A stretch of 64,000 nucleotides of DNA from sequence record OL631481.1; one strand, written 5' to 3'. This stretch comes from Escherichia phage ECML-183-2. Below are positions 7,745 to 56,958 of this stretch, piece after piece. The notes beneath the pieces are model-generated. The model saw only the letters and a list, made by a program, of their open reading frames with translations. It was not told the origin of the DNA and made no database searches. Both the position numbers and the translations under genes were made by a program. Each line of letters begins with the position of its first letter. The first letter of the stretch is position 1.

Positions 7745-10700
7745 TTAGGTTGTTGGCACATCTACCACTGGTGTTGGGCGAATAACCGCAGTATTACCTA
7801 CAGAAACATTACTAGAATCGTTAGGTATGGTTTTGATTCTAACTCCAGCACTCGTAGGCGTTACAATCGGATCTGCAATGTCTATTTTAACTGGGTTAGT
7901 CCACGTATCATTATCTTGATAAGGTGCACGAGTAATAACTGTGTCCAAATCTGCTCCACCTACACCAGCACCAGGAATACGGATACGTGTTCCTGCTGAC
8001 AGAGGATAGTGATACAACCAAGAAGCGTTTGTTGCTGTCCCATTAGGAGTCAAGTTCTGTGTCAGGAAGGTATCTCCTGCTTGTGTAGCTCGAATACCGA
8101 AAGCTGGGATATCTGGAATGTATGCCCCACTTGTTGTTACAAGGAAGAACGTATTATCCGCTTTGACTATCATATCCCCTTTGTCAAACTCCTTCCCTGT
8201 TGGGAAATGCATCCCATCAATGTTTCGGCTAGGGTTAGGCTCTAAGTAATAAACTTTGCTAGTTGTCCCTACAATAGCTCCAATACCACCTGCGATATTG
8301 GTATACATATTAGCTTCAACATTACAGTTGACACGATGAATATCCGAGTAACGGCAACGGCTCCACTGTGGACGACCAGTAACCATCGTCTTGCCATCTG
8401 GGTAACAGTTTACGTTAACCATCTCAAGAACAGATTTTTCTCTACGGAAGAATCCATCATAAAATGTCCCTGGACCAGATTCAGGTTGACCAACACAATC
8501 AAAGATATTACAGGTGATGTTAGACATTGAAAGCCAAGAAGCTACACCGAACAACTGCAACGCAGCACAACGGATATTCTCAAAGCTGACTCTGTTTTCA
8601 TAACCTGGCCCAGCGGAAACTCCTGCAAAAACACGCCCAGTTTTGGTGTGAATGTTACGAACAGAATAGTTAAAGCATGGGTTTGAAGGTCTGCCCTGTG
8701 CCGGAACTACCGGATTACCCTCTTCGTCCAGAACTGCGTTAGTTCCCCACTCCAAATAAATCATACGGATATTACTTGCAAGTGTGCTACCGTCTGTTTT
8801 AGGCTCTCCATAAACACCATCAATCGTAAAATCTTTACTTCCATACATTACAACTGCGCCAGTTGCCAAACCTGTTCCAACAGATACAGTTTGATCTGGA
8901 TCGCCATGAATGTTTTCGATAGAAATATTACGACCAACTTCTACGTGGACAATCTGACGACAACGTTTTGCAAAAACGTTACGAATTGTAATATTCTTGC
9001 AATATTGATCATCAGGAATTCCGTAACCATATGGTCCTTTACCAGCTACACCAATACCGATACCCCAGTTGGACAGAGGAATAGGAGCGTTAGTCCCATC
9101 GATATTAGACAGGTAAATATTCTCAATCACACAACCATCATCATAATGTTTATTGATGACGTTCAGTTCTATTGCATCACCTTGCATGTCCATGAAGGTA
9201 AGGTTACGGAAGACACCGCGTGTTACTGGTTCCCCTGTTCCTTGTTGAAGGATGCCATATAACCCGTTTTTAAAAGTACAGTTATCAATTTCAAAAGTAC
9301 CTGATATTGGGTTGCCTTGGAATACCAGGCTACCAACTTGACCTGCGCGAGGGGCACCGTCCCACAAACAATCGAACATGCGCACAGCACCACCCCAATA
9401 CATAACACGAGAGTTACGGAAAGTTGTGCCTTCTACTGTAGCATTTTGCACACGATAGTCGCGTTGACCACGGAACACACCCCCACGCAAAGTGATACCT
9501 TGAATATCAAAAGAGCTTGTCGTGAAAGTCATATCGCAACCGTAAGCATCGAGAATCTTGCTTTTCGAAGCTTTTGCTGCTAACAGTGCCGCTTGGAAAG
9601 CTGCTTCTGGTGTGGTATATGTTGTTGTGTTGTTAGCAAATTCTGACAAGTAGACAACATCGAATAAATCGTTGTATGTTCCACCACGAGGGGTTAACAG
9701 TCCTTCTGTATTGGTCAGAACCCATGCATTTGGACCTAATCCACCGCTTGTCTCCAATGTATCGGAGGCCAAAATACTTTTTGGTAAACTTCCAGCCCAA
9801 CGATAACGACCAGCACCACGTCCAATCGTCTGATTTTTAGCTGTCAGAGTTACGTTATTACCAAAGCTTGTAGGCAAATGAACAAACTGTCCACGTTCAA
9901 CAGCTAGTGCAGAAAGATCTACAGATCCCCCAGAATAAGTCATTACTCCAGAAACAGACAAAGATGTTAAAGTTCCTGTGATGTTAGGAGGTAATGTGTA
10001 GGAAGACTGTGCTACTGGATCATACAGAGCTTTAATCCCTGTTAACGATTGACCTGCTATTGCGTAAGCCACCTCATCATCTAACAAACCATATTTACGA
10101 GCAATAGTTTGCAGAGGGACTTTATCCATGCTTTCTGTTAGTTCTTCCGTTTTTGTTTCTAAACTAACAAGACGATTCTCTAGGTTAGGATCTGTATCTG
10201 CTGAAGCTACGATTTTACCAATATAAGCAAAAAGCTTGTTTGGCAGTCCTGTCGCAGGATCGTGTCCCAAAGGTTCAGATAAGATGATCTTACTATCTTC
10301 TATGCGGAAAGCTTCTCCCAGAACCTGAATAACACCATTGATCGTAACAATAGCACTATCAAAGATGTAGGGAGGACTGATTACTGTTTCATAACCAGTT
10401 GCACCAGAATATACCCAAGGGGTGACTTCTGTTGCCAATTGTTCTGTTTTCAGTCCCCACAATACCCAGTTGTTATCTCCTACTGGAGTCCCTTGCATAG
10501 GGATTGGGTTAACCAATGTAGCGTTAGGGGCGTAGTAATAACCGCTCAATACTCCATTCTGGAAATAACGAAGTTGGTTAAAAACTGTTTCGTTTGTGCC
10601 TTGCGCCCAATCTAATGGGCTTTTAAAGAAAAAGTTGTCAACAAGGGCTTTTCTCAGGGTTGGTATCAACCCTGATTCTGTTTCAATACTCTCTGTAGCA

Positions 10701-33339: not shown

Positions 33340-33684
33340 TTATTTTTTACGAAGGGAACGTTTTTTAGCTGGAGTGTCTACCGCTTCTACTTTTAAAACT
33401 TCTTCTTTGATTTTTACAGGTGCATAGTCTTCGTAACTTACAAGATAGTAACCCATGTGTTCTTCACTTGCAAAAGGATGCACAAGAATACCTGTTTCTT
33501 CTCTCAAACGCGTGAGGAAGTGAATGAAGTTTCCACCTAATGCAATACGACCATCTTTCAGATAGAAAGACATTGGTGGCGCAGATACTAATGTTTTATC
33601 AGCATCGATCAGTGGTGAAAGCGATTCGAAATCACGAATCATTTCGTGATAACTAAAGTAACGTTTCAATTCTGGGTTTGACAT
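33340..33684 (-). CDS. hypothetical head completion protein (start revised to internal ATG)
   Basis: ATG at 33684 has a GAGGAG RBS; the ORF-track start at 33738 lies inside the upstream terminator hairpin. Confidence 0.45.
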   Translation of the reverse strand: MSNPELKRYFSYHEMIRDFESLSPLIDADKTLVSAPPMSFYLKDGRIALGGNFIHFLTRLREETGILVHPFASEEHMGYYLVSYEDYAPVKIKEEVLKVEAVDTPAKKRSLRKK

Positions 33685-33715
33685 ATCAATCTCCTCGTTG
33701 TAAACTCTTATTGTA

Positions 33716-33750
33716 AACAGAAAAGGCTCGCCCATCACGGACGAGCCTCT
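33716..33750 (-). terminator. intrinsic terminator downstream of major capsid gene
   Basis: AGGCTCG...CGAGCCT 7-bp stem followed by UUUCUGUUU on minus transcript. Confidence 0.5.
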
Positions 33751-33768
33751 AATCTTAACAGAGTTCTA

Positions 33769-34770
33769 TTAAGCCGTAGTCAGTTTAACTACCAGTTCTG
33801 GACGGGTGTTAACTGCGAGCAGCGAGAATTCAGACTGAAGCTGAATAGTGCGGTGCTGGCTGATCATGAAGGTATACAGTTCACGAGCCTGGGTGTTAGC
33901 CAGTTCTGGAGTATCCGCAGGAGCGTAGTGCGCCTGGAACATACCTTCGATACCCATAGGCAGAACATATGCTTCACCAGCAGGAATGTTACCGTGGATA
34001 TCTTCAATGTAAGTTACACCGTTCCATTCGAACACCTGAACATCCATGTTACCGCTAAGGCGGTCACGCAGAAGGTTAGGAGTTCCCTGGAAATACTGAT
34101 ACGCCTGGCGAACAAATGGAGAGTTAACCAGAGATGCGAAAAATTCACGAGAACACAGAGCTACGATACGGGTAGCGGTAGAGCCATCTTGTTTAGTATC
34201 GATGATGTAAGCACGAGCTTCTTGTTCGATAGTGGCTGCTGGAGAAACAGTGGTAGAAGCAAAGTCTACAGCAACAGATTTCTGGGTAGCACCCCATTCG
34301 GTATACCAGTTGTATGCAGAGTTAGCTGCACCACCTACGCCGTTATAGGCACGACCCATAACTGCTTCTGCAAAGATTTTCTCTTTGGTTTTTGCTACGT
34401 CACGCAGAATCTGGGACATATAACGGTTAACAACTTCAGCGTCTGTGCGCAGAGAGTCATTGATTCCTGCCATTGCAAAGCTACGGAAAGATTGAATATC
34501 TTGAGCTTTGATGTTTTTATCCAGAGGGAAGAACGGAATGCGGAACGCTTTCAGTTCTGGATTTTTCATGGTCAGGAAGTTACGCTCACCACCACGCTCA
34601 CGAGCGGAGATCAGAGCATCTTCAGCTTTTTCTTTACCGATTTCAATAGCGGTAGTTGAATGATAGTCAACACTGAACAGATTCAGGCTGGCAATCAGTG
34701 TATCAGGGGAATCCTGAAGTTCGATCATAGGGCTGAAATCTACAACCTGATCTAAAATTACTGCTGGCAT
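33769..34770 (-). CDS. major capsid protein (lambda gpE-like)
   Basis: 333 aa; gene order scaffold-decoration-capsid; segment NTQARELYTF recalled as similar to lambda E. Confidence 0.6.
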   Translation of the reverse strand: MPAVILDQVVDFSPMIELQDSPDTLIASLNLFSVDYHSTTAIEIGKEKAEDALISARERGGERNFLTMKNPELKAFRIPFFPLDKNIKAQDIQSFRSFAMAGINDSLRTDAEVVNRYMSQILRDVAKTKEKIFAEAVMGRAYNGVGGAANSAYNWYTEWGATQKSVAVDFASTTVSPAATIEQEARAYIIDTKQDGSTATRIVALCSREFFASLVNSPFVRQAYQYFQGTPNLLRDRLSGNMDVQVFEWNGVTYIEDIHGNIPAGEAYVLPMGIEGMFQAHYAPADTPELANTQARELYTFMISQHRTIQLQSEFSLLAVNTRPELVVKLTTA

Positions 34771-53680: not shown

Positions 53681-54559
53681 ATGTTTGTAAAATCTTTTAA
53701 ATCCGCTCTGCCTATGGTTGTTGGTGACAATGCTTCTGTAGCATCCCTTAACAGCATTACAGATATTCCTCTGGAATTTGTAACAGCAGAAGGCTCCCAG
53801 TCACACACTATCGGTCTTGTTCGTTTCGAAGATGACTCTAAATTTGTAAAAGAGTTTTCAGATCTTGAACTGCTTAATGTAGGTCAATCTGTGAAGAAGG
53901 TAGATAAAAAGAAAGTTAAACGTATTCTGAATGAACGTCTAGAAGAAATGCGTCAGGACATGGAGAGCGAAGGTAAAGAGTTTTATGTCGATAAAGAAGT
54001 AGTCAAAGCAATGAAAGAAGATATTGAATTTGCACTATTGCCTGAAACAGAACCTGAAGATTTCTTTAACTATGTTGTCTTGGATAAAACTACGAATCTT
54101 CTTTATGTTCTTAATGGAAGTAAAAAGGTTGCAGAAGAGATTACTTCTTTCCTCCGTTCCGTCCTGGGGACTTTCCCTTCGGTAGGTTTTAGTGTGCACG
54201 AAGAAGCTATTGTAAAAGGTTTTGGTGAATTGCTGGAGAATCACGAAGCAGATCGTATTACTCTCGGAAATTATATCAAAATGGAGGATAGCGAGGGCGT
54301 TGTTGTTTGGAGTAAAGAATCTCTATACGAGTCTAAAGCTGTAGAACTAAAAGAAGATGGTAAAGATGTTGTTGCAATCGGTCTTGAATATGACGGTGTT
54401 GTAGATTTTGTAGTGGATAAAGAGTTTAAACTTTCTAAACTACGTTTTCCGAAATATTTTGCAGACGAAGAAGGTAGTATTGAAGCTTCAGTCCTTCTGT
54501 GCTTCAATGAGATTCGAGGTCTGATGGAAGATTTAACCAAAGCAACAATCCTTAAATAA
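53681..54559 (+). CDS. RdgC-like recombination-associated protein
   Basis: 292 aa; central segment VVLDKTTNLLYVLNGSKKVAEEITSFLRSVLGTFP parallels E. coli RdgC from memory. Confidence 0.5.
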   Translation: MFVKSFKSALPMVVGDNASVASLNSITDIPLEFVTAEGSQSHTIGLVRFEDDSKFVKEFSDLELLNVGQSVKKVDKKKVKRILNERLEEMRQDMESEGKEFYVDKEVVKAMKEDIEFALLPETEPEDFFNYVVLDKTTNLLYVLNGSKKVAEEITSFLRSVLGTFPSVGFSVHEEAIVKGFGELLENHEADRITLGNYIKMEDSEGVVVWSKESLYESKAVELKEDGKDVVAIGLEYDGVVDFVVDKEFKLSKLRFPKYFADEEGSIEASVLLCFNEIRGLMEDLTKATILK

Positions 54560-54563
54560 GTTC

Positions 54564-54592
54564 TTGACTTGCGGGATTAGTTATGATATTAT
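54564..54592 (+). promoter_or_regulatory. sigma70-like promoter TTGACT-N17-TATTAT
   Basis: -35 at 54564-54569, -10 at 54587-54592. Confidence 0.45.
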
Positions 54593-54621
54593 GCCTACCT
54601 ACTTAATGAGGTAGGCTTTTT
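54593..54621 (+). terminator. terminator-like hairpin abutting the promoter -10
   Basis: GCCTACC-loop-GGTAGGC followed by T5; predicted start site falls inside the hairpin. Confidence 0.4.
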
Positions 54622-54631
54622 AGGAGGCGTT

Positions 54632-54841
54632 ATGAAAAAGATTCTGACAGTCGTTCTTTTAGCTTTTAGTTTCACAGTAGCAGCAGGTCAAATTACTTTA
54701 ATCTTGTCTGATTCTGAAGTTAATGGCAACACAAAATATTGCTACTATTCTAACGCTAACCAAGATGAAGTTATAGCAATCCCGAAAAGTCGTCAATGTC
54801 CGTATACTAAAACATTCTCAACAGAGGATGACGATGAATAA
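54632..54841 (+). CDS. small secreted hypothetical protein
   Basis: 69 aa; N-terminal signal-peptide-like MKKILTVVLLAFSFTVAAG; AGGAGG RBS. Confidence 0.5.
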   Translation: MKKILTVVLLAFSFTVAAGQITLILSDSEVNGNTKYCYYSNANQDEVIAIPKSRQCPYTKTFSTEDDDE

Positions 54842-54853
54842 TTAGGGGGAAAT

Positions 54854-55972
54854 ATTAGCGGTTATATTTTAATTAAACCTGAAGATCTTCATTTATATGT
54901 CAACGAAGAAACAGTAGCTGCAATTGATTATGATCAGATCGCTTTCCAAGCAGCGTCTGCATTAGAGAAAAGAACAATCATTGCCAAGCACATCCCTTCA
55001 GGTGCTCAAAAGGAATTTAAAAATAAGACAGAGTTTTGGGGTAAAAGTAAGACTAAAATTGGAGGTTGGCTAGGAGATACAAATGCAGAAAGAGCCTCCA
55101 AAAACAAACGTCCCTTCACAAAGGAAGAGTTCGAAATTATTGATAAGCAATACCCGCCAGAAGATATCGGACACACCTTCCAAGCAGCTAAAACAAAAGT
55201 CTTAGGTATTCTAAAACATCTACGTTTAGAAAAATATTGCGGAGTTATTGGCGTAGGAAAAACTTTCAGACACGCCTTCAAAATGCCTGTAGAATATAAG
55301 TCTGAACGATTAGATATCAAACCACTTCAGCTTTCAGAAACCAAAGATTATCTTGTGGAGTTCCACAATGGTGATGTTGTTACTGTAATAGAGGCTGACG
55401 ATGAGTTAGAGAAGTATGGTTTCCAAGGTTATAAAGATTATAAAAGGACGGGTAAATTTTCTTATATTGTAGTGTCTATAGATAAAGATAGTTTACATAC
55501 TCCTAGTATCCTTTTTAATTTCTACAAAGAGGATGGAGTATTTAAAAATCCAGATATAATTCTTATTGACGAGTCTATTGGCGACATATGGATCGTAGAT
55601 AAAGGTAAAAAGAAAGAAGTTAAAGGTTGGGGAAGTTATTGGTTAGCCTATCAGATGCTAATGGGAGATAAAACAGATAGTATCCGACCTTATCAAGATT
55701 TTGATATTAAGTTTGGAGATATTACTTGTTTTAATCTTCTCTCAGCTTGTAAAACTCAAGCAGAGCTTTTCCAAACAGTTAAAGATACTTACTACTCGTG
55801 GTTCCCAGATGGTGTTAATTTTACTTCTTGGGATGGAGAAGAAGTCCATATGACAACAGACGAATGGATAGAAACAATTTTCCAGTTGGTATACATGAAA
55901 CGCTGGGATAATGACGATACAACATTTGAGAGTATGCTTCAGTCATACATCTCACAACAGGAGGCAGAGTGA
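54854..55972 (+). CDS. rnh: 5'-3' exonuclease / RNase H (FEN family, T4 rnh-like); start codon uncertain
   Basis: Motifs AAIDYDQIAF, VIEADDE, LMGDKTDSI; frame open from 54842 with no ATG/GTG/TTG before 55283; candidate AUU at 54854 after AGGGGGA. Confidence 0.5.
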   Translation: MSGYILIKPEDLHLYVNEETVAAIDYDQIAFQAASALEKRTIIAKHIPSGAQKEFKNKTEFWGKSKTKIGGWLGDTNAERASKNKRPFTKEEFEIIDKQYPPEDIGHTFQAAKTKVLGILKHLRLEKYCGVIGVGKTFRHAFKMPVEYKSERLDIKPLQLSETKDYLVEFHNGDVVTVIEADDELEKYGFQGYKDYKRTGKFSYIVVSIDKDSLHTPSILFNFYKEDGVFKNPDIILIDESIGDIWIVDKGKKKEVKGWGSYWLAYQMLMGDKTDSIRPYQDFDIKFGDITCFNLLSACKTQAELFQTVKDTYYSWFPDGVNFTSWDGEEVHMTTDEWIETIFQLVYMKRWDNDDTTFESMLQSYISQQEAE

Positions 55973-56928
55973 GCAGATTAACAGAAGAGCAGAAAGCAGA
56001 TATCCTTAGTATGAGTGCAGAGGGTATGTCTTCTCGCAATATTGCAGCAATTGTTTTAGGTAGTCCAACAAGAAAAAGCACAGTAAATGATTTCCTTGCA
56101 CGTTTCGGTGCAAGTAAACAAGAGCCAGTTAAAAAGAAACAACCAGTTATTAAAATTATTGATGTTGAAACTGCACCAGAGATTGCATATACTTTCCGTC
56201 GATTCAAAGCCTTCATTTCTCCAGACCAGGTAATTCGTAGGGGTTATTTGTTATCTTACTCTTCTGCTGATTTGTATACTGGTGAAGTGGAAGGTAAGAA
56301 CTTGTCTTCTTATCCTCTTTTTGATATTGATCATACAGATGATTGGGAGCTTTGCCAAGATCTTTGGAACCTTCTGAATGAGGCAGATGTAGTTGTGGCA
56401 CACAACGGGTATAAGTTTGACCGTGCATACATTAACCAACGATTTGCATATCACGATATGGCTCCTCCTTCTAATTATGTAGTTGTTGATACATTGAAGG
56501 CAGCTAAGAAACAATTTGCACTTCCTTCCAACTCCCTTAAAGAAATGGGAGCATATTTCGAAACAGAAAGTGAAAAACTGGATAACGAGGGGTTCCCTTT
56601 ATGGAAAGCATGTTGTGAAGGTGATCGTGATGCTTTTGAACGTATGCAGATTTACAATGATGGCGATGTTGTTTCACTCCGTGATTTGTATATGAAAATC
56701 CTTCCGTGGATTCCACAGCATCCTAACTTATCCGCTTATTACCCAGATGAGAAAGTCCGTTGTTCTCGTTGCGGCAGTGATCATGTTCACGTTGTTACTG
56801 GTAAGCAATACCACACTGCGGTAAGTTCTTTCGATATCATTCGTTGTGAATCTTGTGGAGGTTTGTCACGTAGTAGAGCAAACACCAGATCCAAAGATAA
56901 ACGAGCAGCAACTATTATTGGAATCTAA
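55969..56928 (+). CDS. DnaQ-like 3'-5' exonuclease with N-terminal HTH and C-terminal zinc finger
   Basis: Exo motifs IIDVETAP, VVAHNGYKFD, YNDGDVVSLRDLY; HTH-like SSRNIAAIV; CSRCGS...CESCGG. Confidence 0.55.
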   Translation: MSRLTEEQKADILSMSAEGMSSRNIAAIVLGSPTRKSTVNDFLARFGASKQEPVKKKQPVIKIIDVETAPEIAYTFRRFKAFISPDQVIRRGYLLSYSSADLYTGEVEGKNLSSYPLFDIDHTDDWELCQDLWNLLNEADVVVAHNGYKFDRAYINQRFAYHDMAPPSNYVVVDTLKAAKKQFALPSNSLKEMGAYFETESEKLDNEGFPLWKACCEGDRDAFERMQIYNDGDVVSLRDLYMKILPWIPQHPNLSAYYPDEKVRCSRCGSDHVHVVTGKQYHTAVSSFDIIRCESCGGLSRSRANTRSKDKRAATIIGI

Positions 56929-56934
56929 TAATCA

Positions 56935-56958
56935 GGGAGCTTATTGCTCCCTTTTTTA
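56935..56958 (+). terminator. intrinsic terminator
   Basis: GGGAGC-TTATT-GCTCCC hairpin followed by T6. Confidence 0.6.

Follow-up and report, generated by a model that had tools for sequence, protein, structure and literature searches.

The exonuclease locus and its start-less stretch

This report concerns a gene with an unusual 5' end that lies in a stretch of 64,000 nucleotides (nt) from Escherichia phage ECML-183-2 (sequence record OL631481.1), to which we refer as the window and whose positions supply all of the coordinates given below. The window is a segment of a Phapecoctavirus genome, and the region that surrounds the gene (54400-56200) matches the DNA of Escherichia phage ESCO13 at 99.6% identity and 64 phage records at 95-100%. 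To this gene, which is on the plus strand, we assign a coding sequence of 372 codons (54854..55972, with a TGA stop codon at 55970-55972) for a predicted 5'-3' exonuclease that has the fold of the flap endonucleases (FENs) and resembles the product of phage T7 gene 6 (gp6). The putative start is an ATT codon (AUU in the mRNA) at 54854..54856, which is the annotated start of the coding sequence in ESCO13 and which has homologous weak codons in related phages. The first ATG of the reading frame comes at 55283..55285, where it would specify an internal methionine, Met144; most database annotations begin at this ATG and list a product of 229 amino acids.

An earlier note on this DNA had pointed out that the reading frame to which the ATG at 55283 belongs continues open for 147 codons upstream without ATG, GTG or TTG, that this open stretch directly follows the in-frame TAA of a 69-amino-acid open reading frame (ORF), and that the sequence AGGGGGA precedes an AUU at 54854. 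Each of these statements was borne out when the sequence was read again. In the translation of the window the frame stays open over 54842-55282, and none of its 147 in-frame codons, that is, the first 143 codons of the assigned coding sequence (54854..55282) and the four codons that precede them, is an ATG, GTG or TTG. The TAA at 54839-54841, which ends the 69-amino-acid ORF (54632-54841), is in frame with the 147-codon stretch and directly before it. The Shine-Dalgarno sequence AGGGGG (54844..54849, plus strand), which would pair with the anti-Shine-Dalgarno sequence through one G-U pair, is contained in AGGGGGA (54844-54850) and ends 4 nt before the in-frame ATT at 54854.

Of the in-frame codons in the long ORFs of the window, 4.4% are canonical start codons. 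The probability that a given 147-codon stretch lacks them is 0.0013, and the coding sequence of the window should contain about one run of this kind by chance, for which reason the start-free run proves nothing by itself and is unremarkable; its weight lies in being the conserved and homologous 5' end of a gene. The exonuclease gene is the sole real gene of the window with a long start-less leader. The window has only two other long start-less ORFs (8687-9262 and 33682-34659), and these were set aside as antisense shadows of long minus-strand genes.

A predicted exonuclease of the T7 gene 6 type

The 372-amino-acid protein, when used alone as a query, had no match in Pfam (at E values up to 10), in NCBIfam or, by phmmer, in the PDB. 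It is matched by PHROG 107 ("exonuclease") with an E value of 1.3e-55 over residues 10-367, and full-length homologues, with the counterpart of the start-less 143 codons included, are found in 900 phage records. A profile of this family matches the 5'-3' exonuclease 9l56 of the PDB (E 8e-4) and Taq polymerase (E 0.019), and PF02739 matches 10 of 31 homologues, with a best E value of 1.7e-6. The 372-residue protein itself lies below the curated Pfam thresholds of PF02739 and PF01367, and its link to that family is an indirect one. The closest characterized relative that we found is the T7 gene 6 exonuclease, with which an hhalign comparison gives a probability of 95.4% and an E value of 2e-8 for residues 11-281 on T7 residues 11-208. 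In this alignment, AIDYDQIAFQAASALE is placed opposite VMDGDWLVFQAMSAAE, and the aligned portion spans the N-terminal aspartate motif, FRH...YK.NR, E.DD, DKD and GD.TD. By profile, fold and homology to T7 gp6, the protein belongs to the FEN / 5'-3' exonuclease fold and to the T7 gene 6-type phage exonucleases.

When 31 and 37 homologues are aligned, the residues that prove invariant are D25, R139, Y148, K149, E180, D182, D183, D210, K211, D212, Q267, D272 and D275. They include carboxylates of the kind that bind the catalytic metals in FENs (D25, E180, D182, D183, D210, D212, D272 and D275). The IDYDQ motif (54923-54937, codons 24-28) contains the codons for Asp25-Tyr26-Asp27 (54926..54934), which lie opposite MDGDW of T7 gp6 and of which Asp25 is invariant in 37 homologues. 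Further along the gene are the invariant carboxylates of EADD (Glu180, Asp182 and Asp183; 55391..55402), the invariant DKD (Asp210, Lys211 and Asp212; 55481..55489) and GDKTD (with Gly271, Asp272 and Asp275; 55664..55678), a GDxxD motif of the H3TH type that lies opposite GDKADNIPG of 9l56. All of these motifs are encoded on the plus strand, and IDYDQ, EADD and GDxxD had been read correctly in the earlier note.

An AlphaFold2 model of the protein (mean predicted local distance difference test score, pLDDT, 95.4; predicted template modelling score, pTM, 0.89) has a PIN-like alpha/beta domain and a helical H3TH region that together resemble the solved FENs. The 143 residues encoded by the start-less codons are an integral part of this predicted fold: they supply its first strand (residues 16-25), at the end of which D25 is located, as well as Asp27 and an insertion relative to T7 gp6 that is described below. 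At the DNA level this N-terminal part differs from that of phage phi92 at 79% of synonymous sites (pS 0.79) and at 25% of non-synonymous sites (pN 0.25), and comparison with phage phiWec179 gives a ratio of non-synonymous to synonymous substitution rates (dN/dS) of 0.09. The ratio could be computed for some pairs only, synonymous sites being saturated, and the raw proportions pS and pN are used for the others. The N-terminal 143 codons are under purifying selection.

Because the N-terminus of T7 gp6 aligns with it, Asp25 is invariant and the predicted fold incorporates it, the start-less part is the genuine N-terminus of the nuclease domain and carries the first conserved aspartate. The expectation that a functional flap endonuclease would need the N-terminal motif is thereby supported, and the comparison of orthologues, which might have revealed that the catalytic N-terminal region is missing from relatives, showed instead that it is retained. 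The whole of 54854-55972 is best read as a single, undamaged gene whose 372-residue product would be a 5'-3' exonuclease / flap endonuclease like that of T7 gene 6, the activity being a prediction from sequence and model. Of the original designation "FEN-family RNase H", the FEN fold stands, with the qualification that no Pfam threshold is reached. The protein has more in common with the T7 gene 6 exonuclease than with T4 RNase H, and the label "RNase H" is only a family nickname. Identities to the T5 D15 flap endonuclease, T4 RNase H, E. coli ExoIX and the bacterial FenA / Pol I 5' nuclease (PF02739) are only 12-20%.

Two features set the protein apart from its better known relatives. The T7 gene 6 coding sequence, which starts with ATG, is annotated with a length of 300 amino acids and lacks an insertion that follows the first helix of the 372-residue protein at roughly residues 40-110. 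The inserted segment (residues ~38-110; 54965-55180), placed after the first helix of the PIN-like core and before its second strand, comprises ~60-70 amino acids with the conserved pattern EKRxIxAxHKxSGxxKEFKNKTEFWG...GGWL...FEI; almost all homologues have it, those of Pseudomonas, Vibrio and Acinetobacter phages among them. The second feature is at residues 128-134 (YCGVIGVG, 55235-55255), where members of the clade defined below have a glycine at the place at which the second aspartate of canonical FENs (the "FD" before FRH) would sit. Some distant homologues retain an aspartate or glutamate there (VFDGE, CLDHG). The glycine in GVIGVG suggests a reduced set of metal ligands.

Start codons in related phages

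The DNA at the position homologous to ATT 54854 was read in phage isolates and in metagenomic relatives. These comprise 31 distinct sequences that form one clade on a neighbor-joining tree, with a minimum pairwise identity of 44% among the first 27, and they have ATT (11 members), ATC (10), ATA (6), CTG (2) or TTG (2) at the site. Neither ATG nor GTG occurs there in any of the 31. The window shares its ATT with phi92, Citrobacter phage Tr1 and others; phiWec179, Klebsiella phage phi1_175008 and many metagenomic lineages have ATC. Throughout the clade the codon is set in the same architecture, in which AGGAGG or AGGGGG is followed by a spacer of 4-5 nt and then by the start codon and a conserved (S)G(Y/F) N-terminus; the exception to a 6-nt Shine-Dalgarno sequence among the clade loci examined is AGGAG in one metagenomic locus (L029).

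In four lineages (L014, L033, L034 and L037) the codon just before the ATC is an in-frame TAA, which makes this ATC the very first codon of the ORF. Three others (L027-L029) have an ATG nine codons downstream; the residues encoded before that ATG are nonetheless conserved in the protein, and the Shine-Dalgarno sequence is placed ahead of the ATT or ATA and not ahead of the downstream ATG. A pattern scan of IMG/VR for a Shine-Dalgarno sequence, a start codon and the first codons of the gene returned 36 loci with ATG, GTG or TTG, none of which encodes a homologue, and 10 loci with ATH, six of which do, these being small numbers. Outside the clade, the aligned position in outgroups of the Vequintavirinae is ATG in Certrevirus and relatives and TTG in the rV5-like phages. 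In other outgroups the annotated starts are ATG in PAK_P5 and one Felix O1-like phage and GTG in ICP1.

The tree implies about eight changes of start codon within the clade. Since AUU, AUC, AUA and CUG have replaced one another about eight times and AUG and GUG never appear, the weak start codon seems to be maintained, and we take the pattern to suggest a property that is kept across this clade, which is related to the Stephanstirmvirinae.

Proposed initiation at AUU and the alternatives

The earlier note had listed initiation at the AUU at 54854 among several possibilities, and this is the one that gains from the comparison, through the Shine-Dalgarno sequence and weak codon conserved in 31 relatives and through the annotation of ESCO13. 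The search among orthologues for an ATG or a fused ORF, which it had proposed, turned up a weak codon in 31 of 31 and no convincing fusion. We regard it as quite probable that the exonuclease is translated from this AUU, a weak start conserved in the clade, with low synthesis as the likely reason for its conservation. Where the start signal lies, and that it is conserved, can be read from the genomes directly, and on these grounds we strongly infer that AUU would be used in vivo; that low or IF3-sensitive expression is itself the selected property is a further step that we put forward more cautiously.

According to this proposal, the strong Shine-Dalgarno sequence would position ribosomes such that initiation takes place four bases downstream, at the AUU, which would be decoded by the initiator formylmethionyl-tRNA (fMet-tRNA) as a near-cognate of AUG. 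The product would begin Met-Ser-Gly-Tyr-Ile-Leu-Ile-Lys. Initiation of this kind may be expected to be sensitive to initiation factor 3 (IF3), as it is for the E. coli genes pcnB and infC, and the most likely reason for a near-cognate start would be that it holds down the synthesis of a nuclease that might damage the phage's own replicating DNA. In E. coli, AUA, AUC, AUU and CUG are the four near-cognate codons reported to initiate at 1-2% of the level of AUG (Hecht et al., bioRxiv 10.1101/063800), and the four non-canonical codons that occupy the site in the phage clade are exactly this set.

Several considerations weigh against the proposal. The literature on these phages yielded no proteomic or ribosome-profiling data for the exonuclease, and the efficiency to be expected of a near-cognate codon is only a few percent of that of AUG. 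A spacer of 4 nt is near the lower limit of functional lengths. The case for selection against AUG is suggestive only: with about eight changes on the tree, the absence of any change to G at the third position has an estimated probability of ~0.06 if rates are equal. Finally, in all cases the distance from the end of the upstream ORF to the start is 8-20 nt, which makes de novo initiation and reinitiation inseparable by sequence.

The last of these points leads to the alternative that has the most to recommend it, namely that termination and reinitiation are the main route, with ribosomes that finish the 69-amino-acid ORF at the UAA (54839-54841) restarting at the AUU 12 nt downstream. The Shine-Dalgarno sequence would then serve to re-position these ribosomes, and exonuclease synthesis would be coupled to the small ORF instead of drawing on free 30S subunits; only the source of ribosomes would be altered, the start codon and the product being the same as for de novo initiation at AUU. 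An upstream ORF ends at the distance just given in every scorable locus of the clade, in many loci its UAG falls within the Shine-Dalgarno sequence (UAGGAGG), and in E. coli reporters of close cistrons, including the infC-type junction UAA-GGU-AUU, reinitiation was about equal to de novo initiation (PMC3592434). Close spacing of cistrons, however, is usual in compact phage genomes and is seen also in the outgroups with ATG starts, so that it does not discriminate between the two routes, and a full 6-nt Shine-Dalgarno sequence suggests independent recruitment of ribosomes. The upstream gene, moreover, is a different one in L027, where it encodes a methyltransferase. The start region is not sequestered by RNA structure, the fold around it being non-significant (z-score -0.54), and for this reason no model in which coupling acts by opening a hairpin is supported. 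We consider reinitiation as the main route to be the less likely of the two, although it may contribute.

The remaining alternatives would change the product itself. That the 147 codons are an untranslated leader and only the 229-residue product from ATG 55283 is made, as gene callers have it in most records (385 contigs, including phAPEC8), is very unlikely: the leader is conserved as protein across the 900 records, its pN is well below its pS, it is integral to the predicted PIN-like fold, and a product without it would lack the invariant Asp25 even though the leader aligns with the N-terminus of T7 gp6. The callers themselves choose scattered internal ATG, GTG or TTG codons in relatives, for products of 229 to 369 amino acids, which is the pattern to be expected where the true, non-canonical start is missed. 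A joining of the small ORF to the exonuclease by readthrough or frameshift might be suspected from the common frame of the two ORFs in the window and in 17 of 26 relatives, and from two database proteins, P0005 (444 amino acids) and P0091 (379 amino acids), that resemble fusions. The frames differ, however, in the other 9 of the 26, phi92 and phiWec179 among them, a second in-frame TAA stands directly before the start in the four lineages noted above, and a secretion signal on a DNA nuclease would make no functional sense; given the varying frame and the extra stops, we exclude such a joining for practical purposes. The in-frame TAA stressed in the earlier note is thus present as described and incidental in its phase. 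Equally improbable is a gene that was recently split, is decaying, or has lost its ATG through sequencing error, for which the missing start codon is the sole argument. Sequenced independently, 64 phage genomes share this arrangement at 95-100% identity, all of the more distant clade members sampled (31 distinct sequences) have it too, and the ORF is intact, is under purifying selection and has a confidently predicted fold; the suggestion of a recently split gene can be dropped.

The two fusion-like database entries deserve a separate comment. P0005 was rejected as a natural fusion and is an artefact of gene calling: its contig (locus L022, Logan SRR30397360, 2001-3335) carries a TAG at the place of a Q in the protein, and translation of the locus does not yield P0005. 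P0091, judged from its protein sequence alone, seems to be an artefact of the same type, in which gene calls read TAG as glutamine, and appears to come from a contig whose Shine-Dalgarno G-run is longer by one G.

Comparison with pcnB and infC

Initiation at AUU has precedents in E. coli, where infC and pcnB are proven to start with this codon and are cited as the only two genes with confirmed non-canonical starts (Hecht et al., bioRxiv 10.1101/063800; PMC3592434). The likeness to pcnB, which encodes poly(A) polymerase I, is in the near-cognate AUU, which in that gene limits the level of the enzyme. The phage gene differs in having a 6-nt Shine-Dalgarno sequence and in that its low expression is predicted from sequence alone. 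In other bacterial phyla the start of pcnB alternates among AUG, GUG and UUG (Hecht et al., bioRxiv 10.1101/063800), whereas the phage gene keeps to the weak class of codons. The likeness to infC, which encodes IF3, is in an AUU close behind the stop codon of a preceding gene, the infC junction being UAA-GGU-AUU (PMC3592434). IF3 discriminates against initiation at AUU-type codons (PMC9723500), and infC autoregulates through IF3. Feedback of that sort is not expected here, since the product is a nuclease and not IF3, and by analogy the phage start would resemble that of pcnB, with its limited expression, more than that of infC, with its feedback.

Neighboring genes and phage tRNAs

The exonuclease gene is the second of three genes in a compact unit on the plus strand that consists of a promoter-like site, a hairpin, the small ORF, the exonuclease gene, an RNase_H_2-type gene and a terminator-like hairpin. 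A consensus scan places a match to a sigma-70-type promoter at 54564..54592 (TTGACT, 17 nt, TATTAT, with TG before the -10 element; 10 of 12 consensus matches). Immediately downstream of it, at 54593..54616, is a G+C-rich, terminator-like hairpin of 8 pairs followed by TTTTT, an odd arrangement within the 72-nt gap between an RdgC-like gene and the small ORF. This 69-amino-acid ORF (54632..54841) has an ATG start preceded by AGGAGG (54622-54627) and encodes a hydrophobic N-terminus; it is matched by PHROG 4641 (E 7e-27), a group whose function is not known, and its TAA is 12 nt before the AUU. It had earlier been called a signal-peptide ORF, of which the 69 amino acids are confirmed and the signal peptide comes solely from the annotation (by SignalP) of its phi92 orthologue, gp086.

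Downstream of the exonuclease gene is a gene for a 319-amino-acid protein of the RNase_H_2 / DNA-polymerase-exonuclease type (55969..56928). It has its own AGGAGG and a GTG start that overlaps the exonuclease stop codon as GTGA (55969-55972). This overlap is kept in several relatives (L024-L026 and L057), and a gap of 45-180 nt is found instead in L027-L029. A terminator-like hairpin with a T-run (56934..56952) closes the three-gene unit.

About 10 kb upstream of the exonuclease unit, on the minus strand, the window carries ten tRNA genes (42146-44132), two for Met and one each for Ile, Pro, Gln, Gly, Thr, Asn, Ser and Arg. The idea that one of these tRNAs might read AUH codons as an initiator was rejected: the tRNA-Ile(GAU) is an ordinary elongator, and the initiator-like tRNA-Met keeps the anticodon CAU. 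The latter tRNA (42146-42224, minus strand) has an A1-C72 mismatch, an A11:U24 pair and a TTCAAAT T-loop, which are initiator-like features, and is without the three G-C pairs of the initiator anticodon stem. Positions 2-6 of its acceptor stem are GCGGG, as in E. coli tRNAfMet. Similar tRNAs are found in 312 phage records from many unrelated groups, one of them annotated as tRNA-fMet.

Annotation of the gene and implications

The AUU start is already annotated in one GenBank/RefSeq record. In ESCO13 (KX552041.2 / NC_047770; YP_009786567.1, "putative exonuclease") the same gene, 99.6% identical in DNA and different at one residue, is annotated from the same ATT and is provided with a hand-added ribosome-binding-site feature; the unusual start goes unmentioned in the genome announcement. 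Unlike ESCO13, almost all other records of the genus list the 229-amino-acid version from the ATG, and the phi92 record starts the exonuclease at an internal GTG with the note "No RBS identified". We found no published paper on the start codon of this exonuclease or on its conservation, and the clade-wide conservation is apparently undescribed. Some records are doubtful in another respect, in that Campylobacter phage B15, Acinetobacter phage vB_AbaM_ABPW7 and Klebsiella phage ZCKP1 are names under which genomes with 99% identity to E. coli phapecoctaviruses have been deposited, and Pseudomonas phage PsgM04F is the name given to a phiWec179-like genome; these host labels look doubtful or look like the result of contamination of enrichment cultures.

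For the phAPEC8-like and phi92-like phages, then, most records list a fragment of 229-348 amino acids that lacks the putative first catalytic aspartate (the 229-residue form being that of the 385 contigs), and the functional predictions, protein clusters and structure models derived from such truncated entries are wrong for the exonuclease. More broadly, the exchange of AUU, AUC, AUA and CUG at one site in 31 relatives, to the exclusion of AUG and GUG, amounts to a natural experiment, and it suggests that weak initiation can itself be a conserved trait. E. coli K-12 supports the growth of several of these phages, some members of the BASEL collection among them, and the question of selection is therefore directly testable.

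Near-cognate initiation has been reported to be sensitive to temperature, nutrient state and the nucleotide ppGpp (guanosine tetraphosphate) in vitro. It is tempting to see in the weak start a regulatory device, by which the initiation-fidelity state of the host would time or dose a potentially self-damaging exonuclease in the course of infection. We hold this idea only tentatively and think it rather unlikely as matters stand, but if it were true, the start would be a viral counterpart of infC-type control that is conserved across a whole phage subfamily.

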